DNA of 24,000 bases, from positions 2,820-26,819 of the forward strand of contig CAZXLZ010000012.1 in assembly GCA_964642045.1 (NCBI GenBank), written 5' to 3'. The position numbers and the translations under genes were made by a program. This document shows, piece by piece, positions 1-18,909 of this stretch (the stretch's first letter is position 1; each line of letters opens with the position of its first letter). The DNA comes from an uncultured Clostridiaceae bacterium. GTDB lineage: Bacteria; Bacillota; Clostridia; TANB77; CAG-465. Under the pieces are notes generated by a model that searched no databases, was not told the origin of the DNA, and worked only from the letters and a program-made list of their open reading frames with translations.

Positions 1-2
1 TA

Positions 3-812
3 TCTGGATATAAATTTGATTTAAATTTACATGCAGTAGGTGAAATTATAGATGATAAATATGCATTATATGAAGTTCTAAAATCCAAGAATATTAATAC
101 TGCTGAACATAGAATAGTATATAGTAAAAATAATAAATTAGATTATGCAGTAGGATGTAATACATATGAATATGTAAAGGATTACTTTAGGGATAATAAA
201 AATAATATAGTATTAAAACCAAATAGTGGTACATGTGGAATTGATGTATATAATGTGAGTGATATAAATGAAATTAATAATATACTGGATAAATTATTTG
301 AAAAAAATCATTCTATTAGTATATCTCCATTTTATGACATAAAGCATGAATATAGGGTAATAATGTTAAATGGTAAGGTAAAGCTCATATATGTAAAAAA
401 GTTACCTATAGTAATTGGTGATGGAAAGAAAACTATAAGAGAGCTTCTTATTTCATTTAATGAGGGCTTTTTTATAGATAAATTACAAGATAAAAAGTAT
501 GACATAGTGCTTAAAGAAGGTGAAAGTTTTAAATATAATTGGAAGTTTAACTTATCTCAAGGCTCAGTAGCAAGAAGAGTAGAAGATAATATTTTGCTAG
601 AAAAACTATCTTTAATTGCAAAACATGCATCAGATGAAATAAATCTAAATTTTGGTAGTATTGATATAATAGAAACTGTAGATGGTGAATTCTTGATTTT
701 AGAAATAAATAGTGGTGTAATGCTAGAAAATTATATAAGACTTAATCCTAATGATTATCATATTGCTAAGGATATTTATAAAGAGGCAGTAGATAGTTTA
801 TTTGATAAATAA
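3..812 (+). CDS. ATP-grasp family ligase (RimK/glutathione-synthetase-like), partial; the 5' end lies outside the window
   Basis: The reading frame is open from base 3 (SGYKFDLNLHAVGEIIDDKYALYEVL...). So the gene starts upstream of the listed Met at 255. Motifs 'IVLKPNSGTCGIDVY', 'NLSQGS' and 'GSIDIIETVDGEFLILEINSG' resemble ATP-grasp nucleotide-binding and Mg-binding segments. Stop codon TAA at 810..812. Confidence 0.6.
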   Translation, partial: SGYKFDLNLHAVGEIIDDKYALYEVLKSKNINTAEHRIVYSKNNKLDYAVGCNTYEYVKDYFRDNKNNIVLKPNSGTCGIDVYNVSDINEINNILDKLFEKNHSISISPFYDIKHEYRVIMLNGKVKLIYVKKLPIVIGDGKKTIRELLISFNEGFFIDKLQDKKYDIVLKEGESFKYNWKFNLSQGSVARRVEDNILLEKLSLIAKHASDEINLNFGSIDIIETVDGEFLILEINSGVMLENYIRLNPNDYHIAKDIYKEAVDSLFDK

Positions 813-845
813 AAACATACCGATCAAATAGTGGTCGGTATGTTT
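813..845. terminator. Bidirectional hairpin terminator between convergent genes
   Basis: AAACATACCGA (813..823) pairs with TCGGTATGTTT (835..845) around an 11-nt loop. A-rich and T-rich tracts flank the stem. Confidence 0.6.
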
Positions 846-857
846 AAATTTTTATTA

Positions 858-1844
858 TTAACTATTCCTTTTTATGAAAGTGTCAGTATCAATCTCACCA
901 TCACTATCAAGAATTAAAACTTCTTTGTGAAGAGTTATATTAAAGAGTTCTTTTATTTTATTAATAGAATATGAAAATAGTTTAGCAACATCTTTATCGT
1001 TTGTATTTGTACCTGTTATAAAAAATCTGCTACCATAATCACTATATTTTGCACCATTATAATTACAATTAAAACAGTCATTTTCTCTTACTATATCTGG
1101 AAAAGATTTGCCTATTTGTTTTCTTAAATGTGCATTTGACCATAAAGAGCCTGCACATCCTTCTTCAAAACCAAATTTTAGTGAAGTACTTCTTTTATTT
1201 ATCTGTTCATTATATTTTTTCTTTACTAACTCTTTCCCAATAAATTCAGATTTTAATATAACTTCTTTTACAAAATATCTAGTTTTATATCTATTTTCTC
1301 TTTTTATAAAGCTATCTCTATCACCAAAGAAATTTTCATCAGGTTTAACTGTAATTTCTTTTCCTTCTTTAAAGTCATATAAAGTTATTTCTTGTACATA
1401 GTCGCTAAAGCTTTTTTTAGTAGGATTCCAACCAGAGTTACCAACTACTCCTGAACCAATCATTCCTGGGATTCCTGTAAAAGCTGCAAAATCATATCCC
1501 ATTTCCATTGTATAATTTACAAACTTTGATACTATAACGTTACTTGTAATTTTAAAAGTATTATTTTCTTTGTCAAAAATTATGGTGTCATTTTTAGGAC
1601 TAATATCTACAAAAAGGCCATCATAGCCATTATCTGTTATATATAAATTTGTATGAAGTCCAAATATTTTAAAAGATATATCTTTCTTGTATAGCTCATG
1701 AAGTGCATCTAAATCCATTTCTAAACCTTCATTAAATATTAACTGATAATAATATTTTGCATTTCCAGCTTTTTTCTTAAACCCATGTTTATTTGATAAG
1801 TTATAATCGCATTCTATTTTGTGACTAAAATTTACGTTTAACAT
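858..1844 (-). CDS. Divergent MurB-like (UDP-N-acetylenolpyruvoylglucosamine reductase family) FAD-dependent oxidoreductase
   Basis: 'FTGIPGMIGSGVVGNSGW' resembles the MurB 'GIPGxVGGAxxMNAG' motif. 'GCAGSLWSN' resembles 'PSAGSxFKNP'. The C-terminal pattern (NTNDKDVAKLFSYSINKIKELFNITLHKEVLIL) resembles the MurB C-terminal domain. Strong RBS: TAGGAGGAAATATG. Confidence 0.5.
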   Translation of the reverse strand: MLNVNFSHKIECDYNLSNKHGFKKKAGNAKYYYQLIFNEGLEMDLDALHELYKKDISFKIFGLHTNLYITDNGYDGLFVDISPKNDTIIFDKENNTFKITSNVIVSKFVNYTMEMGYDFAAFTGIPGMIGSGVVGNSGWNPTKKSFSDYVQEITLYDFKEGKEITVKPDENFFGDRDSFIKRENRYKTRYFVKEVILKSEFIGKELVKKKYNEQINKRSTSLKFGFEEGCAGSLWSNAHLRKQIGKSFPDIVRENDCFNCNYNGAKYSDYGSRFFITGTNTNDKDVAKLFSYSINKIKELFNITLHKEVLILDSDGEIDTDTFIKRNS

Positions 1845-1901
1845 ATTTCCTCCTAATTAATTACATAAAGATGATATCATAATATTTATTTTTATACAAG
1901 A

Positions 1902-1945
1902 AAAACACTACTAAAATATGTTTAATCATATTTTAGTAGTGTTTT
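1902..1945 (-). terminator. Rho-independent terminator with a 19-bp perfect stem, downstream of the lipoprotein gene
   Basis: AAAACACTACTAAAATATG (1902..1920) pairs with CATATTTTAGTAGTGTTTT (1927..1945) around the loop TTTAAT. A/T runs lie on both sides. Confidence 0.75.
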
Positions 1946-1950
1946 AAAAA

Positions 1951-2721
1951 TTATTTTAGGAAAAATTCCTCGGCTGTAATATCATTTATATAAAGATCTC
2001 CATTTTCAGTTAAGCTATATACAGCGCAGGCATTTGAAGAGTTTTGATAGAACCTTACTTTATAAAGGTAAAGTGAATTCATCTTTTTAGAAAGATCTTC
2101 TAAAAAAGCATTTTCAGCTATACCGTAGTTTTGATGAGTATAATCTTCATATGATTTTTGAAGTTCATCTAAGCTATCAGGAATTGAGGGCAAATCTTCC
2201 ATATATATTGAGTTTGATACTTTTAAATCTGTTTCATTACCATCTATAACAAGATGCATATCATGATTTGTCCATATTATGCTTATTTCATCATCTACTA
2301 TAACAAATCTCGGTTCATTCTCAATTTTGTCTTGAAATTTGATAAGTAAATTGTATGTTTCTTCTGATGGTGATTTAAATCCATCACTTAATGCTTTCGC
2401 GTAGGCAGCTTCAAAATTTCCATCTATTACAGTTGGTAATAACTGGTGATTAAAAGAGGGCTGTGTATTTTCATAGTCATCTATCAAATATTCACATGAA
2501 TTAAAAAATGTTTCATTGATAGCAGTGCTATAACTTTCTGTAGTTGTTTCTACAGGAATTATAGAGTGTGCTTCAGAAGTATAACTTTCATATACATCAT
2601 ATGAATTAGTAATTGCTATTTGCATATCACTATTATTTATAACAGTATTGCTGTTTGTACATCCTGTAATAATAAGCACAAGCGCTAAAACAATAGATGT
2701 AATAATAATTTTAGATTTCAT
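1951..2721 (-). CDS. Putative lipoprotein of unknown function
   Basis: The N-terminus MKSKIIITSIVLALVLIITGCTNS has a signal peptide and an L-I-I-T-G-C lipobox. RBS: TTGGAGGTAACAATTAATG. Confidence 0.7.
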   Translation of the reverse strand: MKSKIIITSIVLALVLIITGCTNSNTVINNSDMQIAITNSYDVYESYTSEAHSIIPVETTTESYSTAINETFFNSCEYLIDDYENTQPSFNHQLLPTVIDGNFEAAYAKALSDGFKSPSEETYNLLIKFQDKIENEPRFVIVDDEISIIWTNHDMHLVIDGNETDLKVSNSIYMEDLPSIPDSLDELQKSYEDYTHQNYGIAENAFLEDLSKKMNSLYLYKVRFYQNSSNACAVYSLTENGDLYINDITAEEFFLK

Positions 2722-2863
2722 TAATTGTTACCTCCAAATTTTTCAGTTTTTATTTGACCTAGTTTTAGTCAAATTACATTGTTTTAATTTGTGTAATTAT
2801 ATCATAATTTACATAAAATGTAAAGACCAACTTAAAATGAGTAGCAATTTTTGTATAATTTTG

Positions 2864-2893
2864 TTGATAAAAATAGACTTTTGTGTTATAAAG
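2864..2893 (+). promoter_or_regulatory. Candidate sigma-A promoter for the ABC exporter operon
   Basis: TTGATA (2864..2869), a 17-nt spacer, then TGt-TATAAA. It lies about 30 nt upstream of the RBS and ATG at 2924. Confidence 0.45.
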
Positions 2894-2923
2894 ATACAAG
2901 CGTAGATGTAAAGAGGAAATAAT

Positions 2924-4684
2924 ATGAAAAATAGTTTTTTTGGAAGAACTCTAAAAGGTGCAAAATTGTATTTAGCAAGTGCAATCATATTAAGTATTGC
3001 ATATTCCAAACTTTTGATATATGTCCCAATGTTTATAAAGTATGCTCTTGATGGTGTCATAATGGGAAATGAGAGTGTAATACCGTGGATAATAAGTAGT
3101 TTATTTTACTTAGATAATAAAGTATATAAAATAGTAATTCTTGCACTAACTTTAATAGTGGTCAACATACTTATATTCATTGTAAATTATTTAAAAAGCA
3201 AGGTTAATACAAAGTTTAATTTAAGGATAAACAGGAATGTTAAGAACATAATTTTAGAGCATATACCTAAGATAGAGTATATGGAGTTTAGTAAAATTGA
3301 TAAATCTAATGTAATACAAAGAGTTAATAATGATGCTGCTACATATGCAGAGTTTTTTAATTCTCAAATAAATATTTTCTTTGATACAATATTTATAATA
3401 ATATTTGCTGTAGCTGAGACTTTAAAATTAAATGTTACAGTTGGGATATTTATTGCTATAATTTGCATGCTAATAGTTATAATTTCAATTTGGTTTTTTA
3501 GGGTTTCTAAGCCTCTAGTAGAAGATACAGTTGAAATGAATAAAGAAGTAATTAATAAAACTACAATAGCTGTAGAAGAATCTAAAATGCTGAAGATATT
3601 TAACAGACAAGATAAAGAAATATCAGATTTTATAAATATGAATAATGAATATAAGAGAAAAGATATAAAGCTTGCAAGACTAAAAGTAATATACGGAATA
3701 ACAACACATAATTTAAGAAATTTTAAAGAGCCTTTTATATTGCTTTTTGGTGGAATTTTAGTTGTAAAAGGAGAGCTTACTTTAGCTGGAATATCAATAC
3801 TTTTAACATATAGTACAAAAATACTTGAGTATGTATATAAATCTGTGGATAAACTAAAAGAAATTAATGAATTTATAGTTGCATACAAAAAATTATCTGA
3901 TCTTATGAAGTTAGATGAAAATACTTGTGAAAATCCTTATGTAAGGCTAGATGGTAATATTACTTTTAAAAATGTATCAGTAGAAATAAATGGTAGTATG
4001 ATACTAGAAAACTTAAATTTTACTATTAATAAAGGTGAAAATGTAGCTATAATAGGAGATAATGGCTCAGGAAAGACTATCATTTCAAAAACACTATTTG
4101 GTTTTTATAATTATACAGGAGATATTTATATAGGTGAGAATAATATAAAAAATGTAAATAGAAAGAGTATTACAGACTATATTGGAGTAGTTCTTCAAGA
4201 TACATATCTATTTACAGATACAGTAAAAAATAATATAAATATAACAAATAGGAAAGTTAGTGATAAAAAAGTAATAGAGGTTTTAAAATTATCTGAAATG
4301 TATGAAGATGTTCTCAAGTTTGACGATAAGCTAAATTATATGATAGGAAAAGGTGGAAATAATATTTCAGGCGGGCAGAAACAAAGAATAGCTATAGCAA
4401 GAAGTTTAATTAAAGAAAATAGTTTTATTATTTTTGATGATTCACTATCAAAACTTGATACTAAGACAAAACTTAGTATACTAAACAATATTATAAAAAT
4501 GAAAATGGGTAGCATCATTATATCACATGATAAAGAAGCTTTAAAAAAATGTGATAAGGTTTTATTTATACGTGATAAAACTATAAAAACAGGGACACAT
4601 GATGAGTTAATGGAAAATGATAGTCTATATAAAGATATTATAGATGTCCATAATAATAAAATTTTAGAGGAAGAGGAAATATAA
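2924..4684 (+). CDS. ABC exporter half-transporter (fused permease and ATPase); the subunit carrying the degenerate ATPase site
   Basis: An N-terminal multi-TM domain is followed by Walker A GDNGSGKT, Q-loop VLQDTYLF and canonical signature ISGGQKQRIAIARSL. Walker B is IIFDDSLS, so Asp-Asp (4436..4441) replaces the usual Asp-Glu. H-loop is ISHD. RBS: AAGAGGAAATAATATG. Confidence 0.9.
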   Translation: MKNSFFGRTLKGAKLYLASAIILSIAYSKLLIYVPMFIKYALDGVIMGNESVIPWIISSLFYLDNKVYKIVILALTLIVVNILIFIVNYLKSKVNTKFNLRINRNVKNIILEHIPKIEYMEFSKIDKSNVIQRVNNDAATYAEFFNSQINIFFDTIFIIIFAVAETLKLNVTVGIFIAIICMLIVIISIWFFRVSKPLVEDTVEMNKEVINKTTIAVEESKMLKIFNRQDKEISDFINMNNEYKRKDIKLARLKVIYGITTHNLRNFKEPFILLFGGILVVKGELTLAGISILLTYSTKILEYVYKSVDKLKEINEFIVAYKKLSDLMKLDENTCENPYVRLDGNITFKNVSVEINGSMILENLNFTINKGENVAIIGDNGSGKTIISKTLFGFYNYTGDIYIGENNIKNVNRKSITDYIGVVLQDTYLFTDTVKNNINITNRKVSDKKVIEVLKLSEMYEDVLKFDDKLNYMIGKGGNNISGGQKQRIAIARSLIKENSFIIFDDSLSKLDTKTKLSILNNIIKMKMGSIIISHDKEALKKCDKVLFIRDKTIKTGTHDELMENDSLYKDIIDVHNNKILEEEEI

Positions 4685-4795: not shown

Positions 4796-6379
4796 ATGGT
4801 AGAATATGCAATACCTAGTAAAAATATAAATTTAATAATTATGCTTGGCCTTAGTTACTTTGGCATTAATATCTTAAGAGCTATTTTTACATTTTTTGAA
4901 GATCTTACTTATGATAGCCTTGTAAAAGAAATTAGTGCAGACTATCGTGAGAAAATATATGTAAAATTGCAAAATCTGAATCAGAGCAGTATAGATAAGA
5001 TAAAAGTAGGAGAGATACTAGAAAATATAGTGAATGATACTAAAGAACTTCCAAGATGGTATACAACTGGAATATGTAGACCATCTTTCATGGGTTTAGT
5101 TAGGCTTATAGGTACTCTTGTAGTTTTAGCTTATCTAGATATACCAATCGTTATAATAACGCTCGCTATATACATGCTAGGCTTTTTTGTAGCACATATA
5201 TTTAATAAAAAATCTATAAAATATACTAAATTAAAAAGGGAAGCAAATGCTAAGATACTTAACTTTTCTAATGAGCAAGTGCAAGGTTGTTCGACAATAA
5301 AGGCACTAGAAATAGAAAAGGAAAGATTAAAAGAGTTAAAAGAGCTTTTATCAAAGTATGAAAAGGTAACTGATAAACTAGAAAAAAATATTAGAATATA
5401 TAACTGTTTATATGATTTTATAGTATCTTTTGTTGGAGTAACAAACATATTTATAGGATCTATTAGTGTACAAAGTGGTATAATAGCATATAGCGCAATG
5501 ATAATACTTGCAAGATATATATCATCTCCTGAAACTTATGCCAAGTGGGTAATAGAAGGTTTTCAGTATAGGAATGTTGGCAGAATATCTTATGAAAGAA
5601 TAAGAAATATTTTAACAAAAGAAGAGGAAAATGTTGATATAGGGGAAAACTTAACCAAAGTTGACACAATAAAATTTAACAATGTGAGTTTTTCTTATGA
5701 TGGAATAAGTAATGTTCTTAATGGTATATCATTTGAGGTAAATAGGAATGAGAGTATTGCTTTAATTGGTAGGACTGGAAGTGGAAAGACAAGTTTGGTA
5801 AATCTACTTTGTAGATTTTATGAAGTAGATAAAAATAATATGATTGAAATAAATGGAAGAGATTATAAAGATTATAGTATAAGAAGTCTTAGAAGTAAAA
5901 TAGGATATATAATGCAAAAAGTAGTAATATTTGATGGTACAATTTATGAGAATATAAATTATGCAGATAAGGATATTTCTAAAGATGAGATAATAAGAGT
6001 TTGTAAAAGATTAAATTTACATGATAAGATTAGTAGCTTAAAAAATGGATATGATACAAAAATTAGTAGTGATACCGATATATTTTCAGCTGGTGAAAAA
6101 CAGTTATTAAATTTCGCTAGAGTTATGATATTTAATCCTGAAATAATAATATTAGATGAAGCAACATCATCTCTTTCATATAAGTCAGAAATGATGGTAA
6201 GAAAAGCAGTAGAAGAAATAACAAAAGGAAAGATTAGTTTTATTATTGCACACAGACTTTCTACAATCAAAAATTGTGATAAAATATTACTTATGAAAGA
6301 AGGATGTGTGATAGAAGAAGGAACACATGATGAGCTTATGAAAAAGCAAGGAGAGTATTATAATTTAGTTTGTGCATAA
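4796..6379 (+). CDS. ABC exporter half-transporter (fused permease and ATPase); the consensus-site subunit. The 5' end appears frameshifted and the likely original start is GTG 4687.
   Basis: Walker A GRTGSGKTS, Q-loop IMQKVVIF, non-canonical signature FSAGEKQ (6083..6103), Walker B IIILDEATSSL, H-loop IAHRLST. ATG 4796 has no RBS. GTG 4687 lies 3 nt after the upstream stop and behind GAGGAAGAGGAAAT, but that frame stops at 4756..4758. The main frame is open from 4736. Confidence 0.85.
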   Translation: MVEYAIPSKNINLIIMLGLSYFGINILRAIFTFFEDLTYDSLVKEISADYREKIYVKLQNLNQSSIDKIKVGEILENIVNDTKELPRWYTTGICRPSFMGLVRLIGTLVVLAYLDIPIVIITLAIYMLGFFVAHIFNKKSIKYTKLKREANAKILNFSNEQVQGCSTIKALEIEKERLKELKELLSKYEKVTDKLEKNIRIYNCLYDFIVSFVGVTNIFIGSISVQSGIIAYSAMIILARYISSPETYAKWVIEGFQYRNVGRISYERIRNILTKEEENVDIGENLTKVDTIKFNNVSFSYDGISNVLNGISFEVNRNESIALIGRTGSGKTSLVNLLCRFYEVDKNNMIEINGRDYKDYSIRSLRSKIGYIMQKVVIFDGTIYENINYADKDISKDEIIRVCKRLNLHDKISSLKNGYDTKISSDTDIFSAGEKQLLNFARVMIFNPEIIILDEATSSLSYKSEMMVRKAVEEITKGKISFIIAHRLSTIKNCDKILLMKEGCVIEEGTHDELMKKQGEYYNLVCA

Positions 6380-6395
6380 GGTAAAGAAAGAGTAT

Positions 6396-6436
6396 AAAAA
6401 TAAAGAATACTAAATTTTTTAGCATTCTTTATTTTT
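6396..6436. terminator. Bidirectional terminator between the ABC operon and the convergent NTPase operon
   Basis: AAAAATAAAGAAT (6396..6408) pairs with ATTCTTTATTTTT (6424..6436) around a 15-nt loop. Confidence 0.65.
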
Positions 6437-6441
6437 TTATC

Positions 6442-7125
6442 TTATTTATCACTCCATATATCTTTGTTTATAAACTGAGTAAGAGCCATGATAAAAGCAG
6501 ACTTTGTTAAATCTATTCTGGTAATTTGACCATTTGTTAAATTACCAATTCCGCCAACAGAACTTTTAAGATCTTTTTCGTCAAATATCTTGTCCATAAC
6601 TGTTCCAAGCTCTGTAGATATTATTTCATCTACATATTTTAAAGGAACAGGGTAGGCAGGACCTACGCCGACACTTTCATAACCGCTATTATCTTTTATA
6701 ACAGCAACGTTCATGATAACCCATTTTCCAAATAGGTTTACAATGCCTGATTCTACAGCTAAGAAATAATCTGCATGTAATTTGTGTTTTTTAGCATATT
6801 TAATTAGGTTATCTACACGGTTTTTAGCACCTTGATAAGTTTCATCATTAACAGGCTCATTACTTACACCAGAATCTACAGGGATGCCTTCTATTTCTAC
6901 AGTTTCAAAGTAGAGCTTGAAAGCTTCCATTGCTCCTTCTATTTTTCCAGGATTTTTGGTACCTATTAGAAGATTAGTAGTATGTATTAGAATATTAGTA
7001 GTAGGAAATGCCTCAATTCCTTCTCTTACAGGTGTAATATATAGAGGTTTATATGGTGGATCTGATCTTCTCATAGGTCTGGGTTTCCTCGGCAAAATAT
7101 GTCTTCTATCATGAATCATTCTCAT
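6442..7125 (-). CDS. Inosine/xanthosine triphosphatase-like NTPase (YjjX/DUF84 family) with an N-terminal ~50-aa extension. The extension is the third copy of the small-protein repeat.
   Basis: The ~175 C-terminal residues (LLIGTKNPGKIEGAMEAF...VDSGVSNEPVNDETYQGAKNRV...FLAVESGI...GGIGNLTNGQITR) match the YjjX-type NTPase pattern. No ATG, GTG or TTG occurs at the point where that domain begins. The N-terminus M(RM)IHDRRHILPRKPRPMRRSDPPYKPLYITPVREGIEAFPTT is paralogous to the two upstream small ORFs. The RBS AAAGGAG suits ATG 7119 (9-nt spacing) better than ATG 7125. Confidence 0.75.
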   Translation of the reverse strand: MRMIHDRRHILPRKPRPMRRSDPPYKPLYITPVREGIEAFPTTNILIHTTNLLIGTKNPGKIEGAMEAFKLYFETVEIEGIPVDSGVSNEPVNDETYQGAKNRVDNLIKYAKKHKLHADYFLAVESGIVNLFGKWVIMNVAVIKDNSGYESVGVGPAYPVPLKYVDEIISTELGTVMDKIFDEKDLKSSVGGIGNLTNGQITRIDLTKSAFIMALTQFINKDIWSDK

Positions 7126-7300
7126 TTTCTCCTTTTTCTTCTTTTTTATCTTTTAGCCTATCAAAAGTGGGAAATGCTTTATTTCCTGCTCTTGTAGGTG
7201 TAATATATGGAGGCTTATGATTTTCTTTTATTACAACTTTACTATCATCTCTACGTTGTAATCTACAATTATCCAAAGTATCATAATGTTTTATAGACAT
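7109..7300 (-). CDS. Small protein (63 aa), paralog B of the tandem triplet; function unknown
   Basis: Strong RBS: TTAAGGAGGGTAAGTATATG. The core HKPPYITPTRAGNKAFPTF is shared with the neighbouring copies. Differences between copies in conserved codons are mostly synonymous. The 3' end overlaps the start of the next cistron. Confidence 0.7.
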   Translation of the reverse strand: MSIKHYDTLDNCRLQRRDDSKVVIKENHKPPYITPTRAGNKAFPTFDRLKDKKEEKGENENDS

Positions 7301-7313
7301 ATACTTACCCTCC

Positions 7314-7505
7314 TTAACTGTTATTTTTAGTGCTAGTTATAGGATTAGTAGTTACATTTTTTAGAATTCTAGAAACAGGAAACGCCTTGTTTCCTTCTCT
7401 TGTAGGTTCCATATATTTAGGTTTGTGCATTTCTTTTTGTATAGGTCTTTCACGGACACTCCAAATTCCTTTACGAACTCCTTTAAAAGCATTGTAGTGC
7501 TTCAT
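7314..7505 (-). CDS. Small protein (63 aa), paralog C of the tandem triplet; function unknown
   Basis: I prefer the internal Met (MKHYNAFKG...) at 7505 over the ORF-track start at 7604. It lies 19 nt after the zinc-ribbon stop, follows AAAGGATGG, and gives the same 63-aa length as paralog B. The core is HKPKYMEPTREGNKAFPVS. Confidence 0.65.
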   Translation of the reverse strand: MKHYNAFKGVRKGIWSVRERPIQKEMHKPKYMEPTREGNKAFPVSRILKNVTTNPITSTKNNS

Positions 7506-7524
7506 AGTGTTATACCATCCTTTC

Positions 7525-7959
7525 TTACCTTGTAGGTAACTTTTCCCAATCACAAAATTCAGCAATTGGTATTTTGGAATATGTAAAAAAGTTACCATGT
7601 TCATCTTTAATTGCAGGGATAAGAGTAACCTTTAAGGTTTCATTTGATAAATCAACTATAAGCTGGTCGGTTTCTTCTACACGTATTCCAGCTTCATCAG
7701 GAACGAGAATTGATTCGGGATGTGGTACCATTCCTTTATCATTTACTTTCCATTTAGGACGAGGAATTCTTTTTCCAGTTGACCTTCCACGAACGAGTCT
7801 GCCGCACGAATCTTTTAACCAAATAAATTCATCGCATTCAAGCTCAGATTGCCTTTTTTCAGCACATTCAGCGCAGATAAGAGGAGCAGTATCAGAGTAT
7901 GGTCTCCAAAGTTTTACTTTTGATTTTCCACAAAGAGTGCAAGCATAAGAATTATCCAT
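7525..7959 (-). CDS. Zinc-ribbon (CxxC...CxxC) protein of unknown function; first gene of the operon
   Basis: The N-terminus MDNSYACTLCGKSKVKLWRPYSDTAPLICAECAEK has Cys7/Cys10 and Cys29/Cys32. I recognise no other family motif. A sampled 60-nt line (7741..7800) is 40% G+C. Confidence 0.6.
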   Translation of the reverse strand: MDNSYACTLCGKSKVKLWRPYSDTAPLICAECAEKRQSELECDEFIWLKDSCGRLVRGRSTGKRIPRPKWKVNDKGMVPHPESILVPDEAGIRVEETDQLIVDLSNETLKVTLIPAIKDEHGNFFTYSKIPIAEFCDWEKLPTR

Positions 7960-8015
7960 TATGTTTTCCTTTCTGCAAATTTGCTTTAATTTAAGATATT
8001 GCTATGATTGGCAAG

Positions 8016-8044
8016 ATTATATCATACTTTAAGCTAAATATCAA
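8016..8044 (-). promoter_or_regulatory. Sigma-A-type promoter for the zinc-ribbon / small-protein / NTPase operon
   Basis: On the minus strand: TTGATA (8044..8039), a 17-nt spacer, then TGa-TATAAT (8021..8016). It lies about 55 nt upstream of ATG 7959. Confidence 0.6.
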
Positions 8045-8074: not shown

Positions 8075-8554
8075 TTAATTTCTTTCGTATTCTTCTAAGG
8101 CTTCACCCAATATATTACCAAATTTTGTTAAGTAATTTTTAGTATGATCAGTCATGTTATCTGGCAATTTATCTATACCAAACCACTGAAGTTTTTTAGA
8201 CTCATTATCATTAATTTTTAAACTTCCACTATATTTCTTTACAACAATTATAGCTGTAATATCATAAAGCTCATCACCATTTGGATACTTCCTATATGTT
8301 TCTTTACCTGATAGAACTCTTGTTATTTTAGATGATATCATATCAAGATTAGTTTCTTCTTTTAATTCTCTTTGAGCAGTTTCTTCAAAACTCTCTCCAA
8401 GTTCCATGGATCCACCAGGAAATCCCCATTTGTTATAATCTGTACGAAGCTGCATAAGAACTTCTTTTTTTTCATTAAAAACAATTATACCTACTCCAGC
8501 AGTTAGAATTGGACTATGTCCAACATATTTTCTTAAATCACTAATATAACTCAT
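8075..8554 (-). CDS. Nudix hydrolase
   Basis: Nudix box GGSMELGESFEETAQRELKEETNL (Gx5Ex7REUxEExGU). I prefer the ATG at 8554 (MSYISDLRKY...) because AGGAAG lies 8 nt upstream. The ORF-track start at 8563 is a GTG inside that RBS. Confidence 0.85.
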   Translation of the reverse strand: MSYISDLRKYVGHSPILTAGVGIIVFNEKKEVLMQLRTDYNKWGFPGGSMELGESFEETAQRELKEETNLDMISSKITRVLSGKETYRKYPNGDELYDITAIIVVKKYSGSLKINDNESKKLQWFGIDKLPDNMTDHTKNYLTKFGNILGEALEEYERN

Positions 8555-8621
8555 AATTATCACTTCCTATAATAGTTATTATACAATAATTATTATGAAA
8601 TTTAAAGTTTAGAAATAAAAC

Positions 8622-13677: not shown

Positions 13678-14043
13678 GGGGGCGTAAGGTTTCGACGGCT
13701 ATTTTGATACATGAATTGCAAGTAGTGGATGGTTGCTTTGGCCACTATAAAAAAGCAAGTTAAATTTAAACGCAGATAATAGAGAATTTGCACTTGCTGC
13801 TTAATTTTTTTAAGCAGCTTGCTACTTAGAGTTTGCTAGAGGCTCTTTTTGTAGCATCATTTATCTAGCTAACAAGTTAAAGTCTTTGGTTACTGGATTT
13901 TAATGGTATTTTTAGTAACTAAACTAGAGCATGTTTTGGTGCACATTAGATTGCTTTAGTTTTATTTTAAATGTGTACTAAACTTGTAGATATTCATGAG
14001 GATGAATTTTCGGACGCGAGTTCAACTCTCGCCGCCTCCACCA
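13678..14043 (+). ncRNA. ssrA: tmRNA (transfer-messenger RNA, SsrA)
   Basis: The 5' GGGGGCGTAAGGTTTCGACGG and the 3' GGACGCGAGTTCAACTCTCGCCGCCTCCACCA form a tRNA-Ala-like acceptor and T-arm. This includes the G3:U wobble and a CCA end. The internal tag frame is GCA GAT AAT AGA GAA TTT GCA CTT GCT GCT TAA (13772..13804). It gives (A)DNREFALAA; the exact resume codon is uncertain. Confidence 0.95.
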
Positions 14044-14350: not shown

Positions 14351-14719
14351 ATGAATAAAAAGATAGGAAAAATTACTAAAAAAGTGATAGAAACATTAGA
14401 ATTAGATATAGAAGAAGATACACCAATTTTTATAAGTGAAAGAAACATAGAACATATAAAAAATAAACATTATAAAGATTATGAAAAATATTTTAATCAA
14501 ATTTGCAATATTATTGAAAATCCAACTTATGTTGCAAGGCATCCTGATAAAACTTCAATAGAGTACATAAAACAATACATCCTTAATAATGAATATGTTC
14601 TAGTTGCAGTTAGGGTAAGTAGTAATAATGTAAATTTTGCTAGAACAATGTTTGTTATGACAGAAAAGAAAGTTGAAATTTACAAAAATATGCGGATATT
14701 TCAAAAAAATATAATTTGA
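14351..14719 (+). CDS. Putative PBECR-like (Barnase/EndoU/ColicinE5-D/RelE-fold) nuclease-domain protein; possible toxin
   Basis: RBS CAGGAGAGAAAAATG. The 122-aa pattern 'ISERNIEHIKNKHYKDYEKYF..I..IIENPTYV..HPDKTSIEYIK.....EYVLVAVRV......FARTMFVM' resembles small Firmicute PBECR-family proteins as I recall them. The call is from memory only. Confidence 0.4.
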   Translation: MNKKIGKITKKVIETLELDIEEDTPIFISERNIEHIKNKHYKDYEKYFNQICNIIENPTYVARHPDKTSIEYIKQYILNNEYVLVAVRVSSNNVNFARTMFVMTEKKVEIYKNMRIFQKNII

Positions 14720-14750: not shown

Positions 14751-14890
14751 AAGCATAATATATTAATAGAAAGCTCTGAGGTCGGAACAGGCAGCCGACA
14801 CCCACGTAAGTGTTAGGAGATGTAGAAAGGTCAATCTACCTAGCTTTCTGACTATAAGTGGGAATAGATGTAAAAGTCTATTCTCTTTTT
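14751..14890 (+). ncRNA. Candidate structured small RNA or riboswitch-like leader; family not recognised
   Basis: Hand count gives 40/80 G+C for 14771..14850, well above the AT-rich flanks. An 8-bp closing helix joins AGAAAGCT (14768..14775) to AGCTTTCT (14842..14849). It encloses three hairpins: GTCGG/CCGAC (14781..14799), CAC-GTAA-GTG (14803..14812, a GNRA loop) and GTAGA/TCTAC (14822..14839). A terminator follows: GAATAGA (14862..14868) / TCTATTC (14877..14883) plus CTTTTT. Confidence 0.55.
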
Positions 14891-15047
14891 GTATGTAAAA
14901 TGGAGGAAATTTTATAATACTGATTTTACATATAATATGATAATCAGTTATGCTTTAAATATTTATAATACAGTAATGTTTATATTTTTACATTTTAAAC
15001 ATTTTGTAAAAATCAAAATATATGTTAAAATTATAACGGTGATAAAA

Positions 15048-15722
15048 ATGAAATTAGTTACTTTTCAAACTTTTGATGCTTTAAAGAACCTTATTAATAA
15101 TGGTGAATTAATTTGTGATGAAAATTACATTAACTTAGAAAAATCAGGCTTAGCATATAAATGGGTATTAGAAAAAATGAATAAGGTAGTCAAAAATAAT
15201 ACTAAGGCTAAATATCCAATATGGTGCTGGGCTAAATGTTATAGTGGAATTTGTCCACCAAAACATAGAGGAGAAAAAGTTAAAGGATTTGACGTCAAAA
15301 TAACATTTAATAAGCCTGAAAAAGATGTCTTTATAACAGATTTTAGAAGATATTCTTTTCTTTTAAATAATATGTATATTCCTAATACGTTAAGAGAAAA
15401 AGAACAATTCTTAAACAAAATGAAAAAACTAAATATCACATCAGAAGAATTGAAAATGTATGCAAGAACTGATAAAGATAACTTTCATAGGGAAGATAAA
15501 GAGTATTTGCAGCTTTTAAGAGAAATAAGAAAAACTTTTGATAGGTGTATAACAAAAGATAGTGATATTTTACAGGGGTGTATTTGGAATATAAAACTAT
15601 CAGAAGTAGAAAATATAGAGATTTTGCCAAACGATGGATATACATATGGATCATTAAATTATAAAAGAAGTAATGGTAAGAGAATAGATTGGCAAAAAGA
15701 TTATTATAAATTATTAAAATAA
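15048..15722 (+). CDS. DUF3841 family protein
   Basis: I prefer the start at the internal Met (MKLVTFQTFDALKNLINNGELICDE...), which resembles DUF3841 N-termini (MKLWTIQ...). The ORF-track start at 14889 is a TTG inside the upstream terminator. Confidence 0.55.
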   Translation: MKLVTFQTFDALKNLINNGELICDENYINLEKSGLAYKWVLEKMNKVVKNNTKAKYPIWCWAKCYSGICPPKHRGEKVKGFDVKITFNKPEKDVFITDFRRYSFLLNNMYIPNTLREKEQFLNKMKKLNITSEELKMYARTDKDNFHREDKEYLQLLREIRKTFDRCITKDSDILQGCIWNIKLSEVENIEILPNDGYTYGSLNYKRSNGKRIDWQKDYYKLLK

Positions 15723-17963: not shown

Positions 17964-18320
17964 ATGATGAGTCAGAAAGAGCTTCATGGCTTGTTAGATA
18001 GGAAAAATAGCCTTGATGATGTGCAAGATTATATAAAAAAAGTAATAGACATAAGAGGTTTTGGAGAGCAAAAAGTAGAGCAAGAATTACTTCTTTTAAC
18101 AGAAGAAGTAGGAGAGCTTGCAAAAGCCATTAGAAAAGACAAAACAGATATGTGTATTGATAAGAATAAGATAAAAAATTATGATACAGTAGATAGTGAG
18201 ATAGCTGATGTATTTATAGTTTTAACATCTATTTGCAACACTCTTGGAATAAACCTATATGATGCTGTTTACGCAAAAGAAAAAGAGAATGTAGAAAGGA
18301 CTTGGAAAAATGACAAATAA
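17964..18320 (+). CDS. MazG-like (all-alpha) nucleoside triphosphate pyrophosphohydrolase
   Basis: 'LLLLTEEVGELAKAIRK' (ExxE/EExxE metal motif) and 'DSEIADVFIVL' are typical of MazG/YpjD-type NTP-PPases. RBS TAGGAGGAAATCGATATG. It has its own TGa-TATAAT -10 element about 30 nt upstream. Confidence 0.75.
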   Translation: MMSQKELHGLLDRKNSLDDVQDYIKKVIDIRGFGEQKVEQELLLLTEEVGELAKAIRKDKTDMCIDKNKIKNYDTVDSEIADVFIVLTSICNTLGINLYDAVYAKEKENVERTWKNDK

Positions 18321-18909
18321 GGAAATTCTTGATAAAATAAAGAGCCTTTCTGATAGTGAAAAAAGAGCTATTCCATATGTAGAGCTTGTAAGTATCATAA
18401 AAAGGCTTTCAAAAGATGAAATTATTGATCTTGCAAATATAATTGGTTATCATGTGTTCATAAGAATGTGCATGGGAGAAATAGGGCATATGGTACCTAT
18501 AATTCAAAATGGTGCAGCTGCAATAATTGTAAATGAGAAAAAAGAAATACTTCTTCAATCAAGAGCTGACAGAGATAAATGGGGACTTCCAGGAGGATGT
18601 CAGGCTATAACAGAAAGTCTTGAAGATACTGTAATTAGAGAAGTTAAAGAAGAAACAGATCTTAATGTAAAAAAAGAGGATTTAAAGTTAATTGAAAGTG
18701 TATCAGGAGAAAGTAGAAGAAATGACTATCCAAATGGTGATACAGTTTTCAACAATACCAATTTATACTACATAGATAAATATACAGGAACTCTTAAATG
18801 GGATGATGAATCAAAAGAGATGAAATTCTTTAGTATTGATAATCTTCCAGAAAATCTAATGGATAAAGATTTAATTGATGTGTACATAGAGAAAATGATA
18901 AAGAAGTAA
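18310..18909 (+). CDS. Nudix hydrolase with a ~65-aa N-terminal extension
   Basis: Nudix box GGCQAITESLEDTVIREVKEETDL. It overlaps the MazG-like gene by 11 nt. It is paralogous to the 8075..8554 Nudix; both share 'KWG.PGG', 'YPNGD' and a '[FI]D[KN]LP[DE]N[ML]' C-terminal motif. Confidence 0.85.
   Translation: MTNKEILDKIKSLSDSEKRAIPYVELVSIIKRLSKDEIIDLANIIGYHVFIRMCMGEIGHMVPIIQNGAAAIIVNEKKEILLQSRADRDKWGLPGGCQAITESLEDTVIREVKEETDLNVKKEDLKLIESVSGESRRNDYPNGDTVFNNTNLYYIDKYTGTLKWDDESKEMKFFSIDNLPENLMDKDLIDVYIEKMIKK

Follow-up and report, generated by a model that had tools for sequence, protein, structure and literature searches.

The YjjX family of nucleoside triphosphatases (NTPases), of inosine/xanthosine triphosphatase type (ITPase/XTPase) and described by the domain NTPase_I-T, is known from Escherichia coli YjjX and Vibrio VC0702 (structures 1u5w, 1u14 and 1zwy), and its typical members, like those with solved structures, stand alone and have about 170-185 residues. 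The N-terminal strand-loop motif of the family, G-[ST]-x-N-P-x-K, contacts the triphosphate. Two other described systems involve short proteins in arrangements of interest here: the class I Fic antitoxins (VbhA-type), small proteins encoded just 5' of the enzyme gene and carrying the inhibitory motif [S/T]xxxE[G/N], and the tandem precursor genes of ribosomally synthesised and post-translationally modified peptides (RiPPs), which are several adjacent short paralogous open reading frames (ORFs) with a conserved front and variable tails. Small bacterial proteins in general are often unannotated, and mostly have no assigned function. We analyzed a stretch of 24,000 nucleotides from an uncultured Clostridiaceae bacterium (contig CAZXLZ010000012.1, positions 2,820 to 26,819; hereafter the window), in which an operon encodes a zinc-ribbon protein, two free copies of a small protein (A and B) and a third copy (C) fused to a YjjX-type ITPase/XTPase. 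The explanation that we consider best, with a probability of roughly 45%, is the triplication of a rare small-protein family and the fusion of one copy, with the small proteins working as docking adaptors.

The operon consists of four tightly spaced ORFs on the minus strand, from 8044 to 6388, as obtained from ORF translation. Its elements are:

8016..8044, minus strand, promoter-like site of sigma-70 type, TTGATA-17 nt-TG-TATAAT, 5' of the zinc-ribbon gene
7525..7959, minus strand, cistron 1, a 144-residue zinc-ribbon protein (CxxC...CxxC) of an unnamed family
7314..7505, minus strand, cistron 2, copy A, a free small protein of 63 residues with its core at 7377..7427
7109..7300, minus strand, cistron 3, copy B, a free small protein of 63 residues with its core at 7169..7219 and a GGAGG ribosome-binding site
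6442..7125, minus strand, cistron 4, the longest ORF, 227 residues, copy C plus the NTPase domain
6976..7125, minus strand, copy C, the N-terminal module of cistron 4 (about 48-50 residues), core at 7003..7053, lacking a stop codon
6442..6975, minus strand, YjjX / NTPase_I-T domain (ITPase/XTPase-type) of cistron 4, matched by PF01931, TIGR00258 and PDB entries
6388..6443, minus strand, terminator hairpin, A/U-rich, 19 bp with U tracts on both sides, from RNA folding

Copy C is in frame with the NTPase domain, with no stop codon between the two. The PF01931 match begins at residue 55 of 227 and spans profile positions 1-162 of 162, i.e. the full-length domain, with 145.3 bits (cut-off 25). TIGR00258 was passed narrowly (118.8 bits against a cut-off of 117.1), and the other equivalog models, PRK03941 and PRK05074, gave scores under their cut-offs for cistron 4. 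PDB matches were obtained with 1zwy, 1zno, 1u14 and 1u5w, all YjjX/VC0702 structures, at 1e-13 to 1e-17, the N-terminal strand-loop 'LLIGTKNPGKIEG' of the domain being aligned with 'IIIASQNPAKVNA' of 1zwy. Residues ~49-225 correspond to a full-length family member with the G-[ST]-x-N-P-x-K strand, and cistron 4 is predicted from its sequence to be a complete NTPase_I-T protein of ITPase/XTPase type. It differs from the stand-alone architecture by its N-terminal module of about 48 residues, homologous to the small ORFs encoded upstream; no such extension turned up in other YjjX members, no survey of NTPase homologues having been made.

The stretch spanning the fusion reads '...AFPTTNILIHTTNLLIGTK' in the cistron 4 product, and the motif core of copy C sits 17 residues N-terminal of the GTKNPGK strand. 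All in-frame ATG, GTG and TTG starts that spare this catalytic N-terminal strand lie upstream of the motif, and therefore a functional enzyme must carry it. The public gene call for this protein (P0063) starts at the second ATG, at 7119, giving 225 residues; this ATG shows better Shine-Dalgarno spacing than the first one and is likely the start of cistron 4. At family-conserved positions copy C is the most divergent of the three (REGIEAFPTT vs REGNKAFPVF). An AlphaFold2 (AF2) model of the fusion protein, whose alignment took in the N-terminal module only, was unusable, with a predicted local distance difference test score (pLDDT) of 51. Just ahead of the NTPase domain copy C also contains a short internal repeat (6976-7053, minus strand), TTN-ILIH-TTN, in which ACTACTAAT occurs twice and which may be a trace of the fusion event.

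Copies A, B and C are paralogues of one small-protein family by sequence comparison, their similarity being far beyond chance (BLASTP 3e-11 for A-B, 4e-9 for A-C and 5e-7 for B-C). A and C, with 42% identity over 53 residues, were called the closest pair, and their tails also align as DNA with a score of 20, matched in none of 2000 shuffles. A homology between the tail end of copy A ('ITSTKN') and the first codons of the NTPase ('LIGTKN') was considered as well and discarded, the last 21 nt alone being without significance. The public protein collection contains the exact sequences of A and B as called gene products (P0002 and P0003, from NCBI and Logan), and the three proteins of the window are singleton clusters there, seen on one contig. 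The nearest outside relative of A is P0072 (43% identity) and that of B is P0074 (55%). Within the core of copy A, and in this copy only, a terminator-like hairpin lies on the opposite strand (7372-7393, plus strand, GAAACAGGAAACGCCTTGTTTC), which is probably incidental.

An earlier, sequence-only reading of the stretch had described a promoter and a terminator bracketing four minus-strand cistrons, and both signals hold up. The site at 8044..8016 matches 11 of 12 consensus positions and has an extended -10 TG, which makes it a putative promoter by consensus, and the hairpin at 6388..6443 has a folding energy of -19.2 kcal/mol (z = -7.1), with no equally good fold in 200 shuffles; the latter is probably bidirectional and common to the convergent ABC-transporter gene that ends at 6379. 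The first cistron is, as that reading had it, a 144-residue CxxC...CxxC protein (7959..7525), the three cores lie exactly where it placed them, and the cistrons nearly abut or overlap, with ribosome-binding sites in place: 19 nt separate the zinc-ribbon stop from the start of A, 13 nt the stop of A from the start of B (with GGAGG 5' of the latter), and B and C overlap by 11 or 17 nt depending on the start of C. It had further counted three small tandem ORFs; their paralogy stands, but C is no separate ORF, it is the N-terminus of the NTPase, which leaves two free copies and one fused. The 63-residue copies are A and B rather than B and C, and the six synonymous third-position differences that had been assigned to B and C do exist, but in the pair A and B.

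These six synonymous differences lie in the 18-codon core, for which the comparison of A with B yields proportions of 0.50 synonymous (pS) and 0.19 nonsynonymous (pN) differences and a ratio of nonsynonymous to synonymous rates (dN/dS) of ~0.27. Orthologue pairs from other genomes gave dN/dS values of 0.11/0.36 (P0077 vs P0076) and 0.13/0.89 (P0074 vs P0069), which puts the ratio at 0.15-0.3. Both A and B retain intact frames and ribosome-binding sites despite ~50% synonymous divergence; by our own estimate the probability of a neutral 63-codon frame staying open at 27% GC is roughly 0.004, so that open frames in A and B are improbable under neutrality and point to selection. The sequence data support the view, already put forward from the window alone, that the small units are translated sequence under purifying selection, and not a DNA or RNA repeat.

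The small proteins had been said to fall outside any described family, and this was borne out by the searches. A and B gave no match in profile searches against Pfam, NCBIfam, PHROGs and PDB, and a scan of all family members against Pfam and NCBIfam showed no recurring weak match. A word-indexed profile search started from the three copies recovered nothing beyond them. An exhaustive HMMER search over 1.84 billion representatives found six small motif proteins (56-106 residues) together with the window's own fusion protein, and a second profile search added four further family members. In total, 5.8 billion proteins contain ~12 clusters of the family; these come from NCBI, ENA and Logan assemblies, and none of them is named: a profile built from the three copies leads to a conserved motif and to no characterised family. 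The family is real, very rare and undescribed.

Its alignment defines a consensus of ~20 residues, Y-x-x-[P/C]-x-R-E-G-N-K-A-F-P-V-F-x-x-L-K-[N/D], in which Y, R, G, F, P and L are invariant and E, N and A almost so. Members have 56-108 residues, with a weaker conserved segment N-terminal of the motif and a variable tail C-terminal of it. Two N-terminal flavours can be distinguished, 'YDxLxxCRLQRR' in copy B, P0064, P0065, P0069 and P0074, and 'GxWSxxExPI...AFPVS' in copy A and P0072, copy C being nearest to A. The tails are variable among the 56-63-residue members and conserved among those of 105-108 residues, which have an extra conserved acidic tail ending in YQKVKK. Most members are basic, with an isoelectric point of 8.8-10.9 in 11 of 13 and a net charge of +3 to +9 over the first 45 residues in 12 of 13, and the AF2 fusion model, itself a poor one, predicts no secondary structure for the module.

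It should be noted that short-motif profiles pick up repeat proteins. Four giant Gram-positive surface proteins (P0067, P0068, P0070 and P0073) reached E = 1e-4 to 1e-8 from summed matches of helical repeats with 'DYKPNTVxPLE'; they have no REGNKAFP core and were rejected as repeat-driven false positives. A resemblance of one member to ribosomal protein bS21 (S21p, E = 0.068 in 13 scans) was likewise set aside as the chance expectation. At the DNA level, genome, viral and metagenome collections yielded only 4 matches to the strict pattern K-P-x-Y-x-x-P-x-R-x-G-x-x-A-F-P, all of them chance ones that are out of frame or interrupted by stops; this pattern is too narrow, most true relatives deviating in the K-P-x-Y part. 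The relaxed pattern REGNKAFPV was absent from viral contigs and gave one doubtful match, at a contig end, in the JGI metagenomes. Searches of viral, phage and plasmid collections recovered no family member, and neither the window nor the small proteins nor the zinc-ribbon protein had a match in plasmid, phage and E. coli-independent collections.

The genomic context of the family was analyzed in 16 foreign loci with a family member (given as L011-L020 and L026-L029). A profile scan of six-frame translations found one copy per foreign locus, against three in the window, and an NTPase_I-T or zinc-ribbon homologue stands beside the small gene in none of the 16. The sequence-only reading had suggested a functional link of the small proteins with the NTPase, to be sought in the gene neighbourhoods; tabulating these for co-occurrence with the NTPase or the zinc-ribbon protein disclosed none at the foreign small-gene loci, the zinc-ribbon homologues examined have no motif ORFs beside them, and the link extends to no other genome found.

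A first group of loci (L011, L014-L017 and L026-L029; GC ~24%) has the order pth, mfd, lipoprotein, small gene and a 352-residue protein, an order preserved even where members share only 53% identity. In L014-L016, but not in L017, a Fic gene has been inserted 3' of the small gene; this Fic carries its own N-terminal inhibitory motif, SNKIEG, together with HPFLDGNGR. In a second group (L012 and L018) the small gene lies between a 427/453-residue DACNH-like protein and an 894-residue HExxH protein, the flanking proteins being 32-38% identical between both loci, and is monocistronic, with its own predicted promoter and terminator. The DACNH matches are borderline (26.4 and 15.3, against a Pfam cut-off of 27). 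This three-gene block occupies 883-3581 in L012, where it adjoins a serine-recombinase C-terminus, and 445-5001 in L018, and the motif of the 894-residue protein is HEISH; its proteins have no PADLOC or PDB match. A diadenylate cyclase (DAC) domain suspected by eye at the C-terminus of the 427/453-residue neighbours in L012 and L018 ('DGAxVVD...GARxN') was not confirmed by Pfam and PDB sequence searches. Finally, in L019 the small gene follows a DUF6036 nucleotidyltransferase and precedes several unknown ORFs (2-3969), one of which has a weak nucleoside 2-deoxyribosyltransferase match and a phrog_289 match. Elsewhere, then, the small gene is free-standing, keeps its position across divergence, is under purifying selection and has no association with the NTPase or the zinc-ribbon protein.

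Since the loci elsewhere are single-copy and NTPase-free, we infer that the array of the window is a lineage-specific triplication plus fusion, and not a conserved NTPase system. In this scenario a small gene would have been amplified to three tandem copies just upstream of an NTPase gene, and the last copy would have lost its stop codon and tail, the NTPase being translated from then on from the copy C start, with an N-terminal extension. As to mechanism, the small proteins could be disordered, positively charged adaptors that dock on a partner through the conserved linear motif, an idea prompted by the conservation being limited to a ~20-residue stretch in short, mostly basic and apparently disordered proteins; this part of the explanation is tentative, and we regard it as possible with the odds clearly against it. 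Because neighbourhoods vary between lineages, such a partner would more likely be a common, core component of the cell than the enzyme encoded nearby. The free forms of the adaptor would be A and B, and C would either attach the house-cleaning NTPase to this partner as well or act as a modulator of the enzyme. E. coli YjjX, an ITPase/XTPase, is reported to bind EF-Tu (Zheng et al. 2005, as cited in PMC7865087), which by analogy offers a lead, not evidence for this locus.

What makes the locus of interest is that it is a clean example of an orphan small-protein family with an almost invariant 10-residue core under purifying selection, and a natural experiment, in which a single genome combines two free copies with a third joined to a house-cleaning enzyme that is well understood. 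Should the motif prove to be a docking peptide, the fused copy would be a direct handle on the partner and would permit testing the recruitment of YjjX-type enzymes to cellular sites. The family is tiny and its NTPase link is seen in one genome only, the value of the locus being that of a tractable entry to an orphan motif.

Several observations weigh against the triplication, fusion and docking explanation. Over the full length, dN/dS between A and B is ~0.8, and constraint is therefore confined to the core. In copy C near-invariant residues have been replaced (N to I, K to E and VF to TT), and its dN is equal to or larger than dS against both A and B; this divergence fits decay after an accidental fusion equally well as a new function. 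The foreign contigs are mostly 1-6 kb, so further copies or NTPase genes elsewhere in those genomes are possible, and the loci of the first group, their organisms being close relatives, amount to no more than one or two independent observations. The docking partner, moreover, is hypothetical, the fusion model (pLDDT 51) being silent on docking.

Four other explanations were considered, which by weight rank as NTPase regulator, functionless duplication, conflict module and RiPP array. By the logic of the Rosetta stone, A and B would serve specifically to regulate the ITPase/XTPase transcribed with them, be it as inhibitors, activators or specificity subunits, and C would be the same module tethered in cis. 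Translational coupling of the cistrons within one operon, the NUDIX hydrolase gene directly upstream (8075-8563) and the position of C, fused 17 residues ahead of a GTKNPGK strand that aligns with the N-terminal strand of the YjjX structures, all speak for such a role. We nevertheless hold it to be rather improbable: an NTPase_I-T gene accompanies the family in 0 of the 16 foreign loci, the small gene is kept in unrelated neighbourhoods and is monocistronic in two of them, the copy that was fused is the one that lost family-conserved residues, and the AF2 model is too poor for docking. The loss of residues in C leads to the next possibility, a fortuitous local duplication in which C is decaying and served only for start-codon capture by the NTPase, the array being functionless with at most one of A and B functional. 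The triple copy being found only in this genome, the three proteins being singleton clusters from one contig, the divergence of C at near-invariant positions with dN at or above dS, and the full-length A-B ratio are as one would expect from it. On the other hand A and B keep (nearly) all invariant residues, their frames and their ribosome-binding sites despite the synonymous divergence noted above, and their nearest outside relatives are different ones (P0072 and P0074), which suggests paralogues that are old and have been maintained, not the product of a recent slip; a fortuitous origin thus appears doubtful, if hardly more so than the regulator role.

A conflict system acting on the nucleotide pool had been among the earlier suggestions, and it is suggestive that some neighbours elsewhere handle nucleotides (the DACNH-like protein, the DUF6036 nucleotidyltransferase and Fic). 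Here the small proteins would be sensors, antitoxin-like neutralisers or nucleotidylation targets in nucleotide-centred conflict or defence modules, or more broadly a new class of modulators working with nucleotide-handling enzymes, and the operon would be one such surveillance module. The enzymes concerned may be the ITPase and NUDIX in the window and the DACNH-like protein, the DUF6036 nucleotidyltransferase and Fic in other genomes, with one module in cis on the ITPase, two copies in trans and the orphan-fold zinc-ribbon protein as a further component. The triad of a DACNH-like 'probable sensor domain', small gene and 894-residue HExxH protein beside a serine-recombinase fragment would suit it, and so would the NUDIX, the ITPase and a second MazG and NUDIX pair in the window. 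We consider it unlikely all the same. A PADLOC-DB 2.0 scan of the zinc-ribbon, fusion and NUDIX proteins and of the foreign neighbours (A and B being outside the scan) gave nothing above noise (no match or E > 0.02) except for the NUDIX, which matched the generic candidate PDC-S07 at 1.7e-10; no phage, plasmid or viral collection holds a family member; the genes of the first group have housekeeping neighbours (pth, mfd); the sister locus L017 lacks Fic, which in the loci that do have it bears its own inhibitory motif; and the DACNH matches are at or under the Pfam cut-off. Identity with a class I Fic antitoxin was examined in particular. The 'TPVREG' of 8 of 13 family members fits the low-information antitoxin motif, and Fic follows the small gene in L014-L016, but while E-G is conserved, 8 of the 13 members have T four residues before E and the other 5 have Q or E there, Fic is missing from L017, L026-L029, L012, L018, L019 and the window, and this identity was rejected, the inhibitory S/T not being conserved, the pairing with Fic not being obligate and the Fic of L014-L016 having its own SNKIEG. 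Least weight goes to a RiPP-like precursor array, which is very unlikely; its peptides would consist of a conserved leader and a variable C-terminal core, and the ABC transporters encoded alongside would export them. The tandem copies, conserved in their N-terminal and central parts and variable in their tails, recall such precursors, two ABC exporter genes adjoin, and the ORF at 255..812 has a weak resemblance to ATP-grasp proteins (E = 4.5e-4, under the cut-off). However, the ABC genes are convergent and belong to another unit, an enzyme is attached to one of the copies, the tails of the first group are conserved and not hypervariable, the gene is single-copy and monocistronic elsewhere, and, in agreement with the earlier remark that a classical RiPP cluster is unsupported, neither the operon nor the foreign loci contain a tailoring enzyme, leader peptidase or dedicated exporter.

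Concerning cistron 1, the zinc-ribbon protein has ~60 homologues with 35-52% identity, all unnamed (P0004-P0062). Sets of 28 and 55 sequences show little or no variation at C7, C10, C29 and C32, the residues of two CxxC knuckles, and a KLWRP motif and a C-terminal W..LPTR are also conserved. The protein is predicted to be a zinc ribbon by fold class. Its closest known counterparts, the generic families DUF7573, Zn_ribbon_8 and FmdB, share the N-terminal CxxC...CxxC ribbon of ~30 residues, and cistron 1 differs from them in that its other ~110 residues make up a conserved beta-rich domain ending in W..LPTR. Scores were below cut-off in all three cases (20.4 against 30.2 for PF24458, DUF7573; 14.4 against 34.4 for PF09723, Zn_ribbon_8; 15.7 against 31.3 for TIGR02605, FmdB), in line with its having been placed outside described families. 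An AF2 model of good quality (pLDDT 88.9, predicted template modelling score 0.80) had no Foldseek match in PDB and BFVD. The homologues lie beside TnpV and LysR (L001-L003), beside MltG and aspS (L004) and in an island with AAA_33, CYTH and NUDIX (L006), and no motif ORFs were found near them in these five loci; IMG/VR viral contigs (L022-L025) encode four distant relatives. The zinc-ribbon protein is a second orphan, and its presence in the operon is not conserved.

The window has 27% GC and contains, besides the operon, ABC exporters, RNase J, YetF, a tmRNA gene and the second MazG and NUDIX pair, and it looks chromosomal and Clostridia-like. Third-position GC of the operon genes (0.09-0.22) is in keeping with the AT-rich host, and a foreign origin of the operon, considered from GC content, showed no clear signal. 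The MazG gene (17964-18320, plus strand) overlaps its NUDIX partner (18310-18909, plus strand), a second nucleotide house-cleaning pair, and this NUDIX is 44% identical to the one at 8075-8563. On the plus strand a tmRNA gene (13678-14043; RF00023, 146 bits), a PBECR3 nuclease ORF (14351-14719), a skipping-rope RNA (14771-14846; RF02924, 55 bits) and a DUF3841 ORF (14889-15722) follow each other in this order. As tmRNA genes are frequent integration sites for islands, the stretch downstream of this one may be an island. The ATP-grasp match of the ORF at 255-812 (plus strand) is to R2K_2, and a MurB-like FAD-binding ORF (858-1844, minus strand) adjoins it, both lying beyond the two ABC exporter genes.

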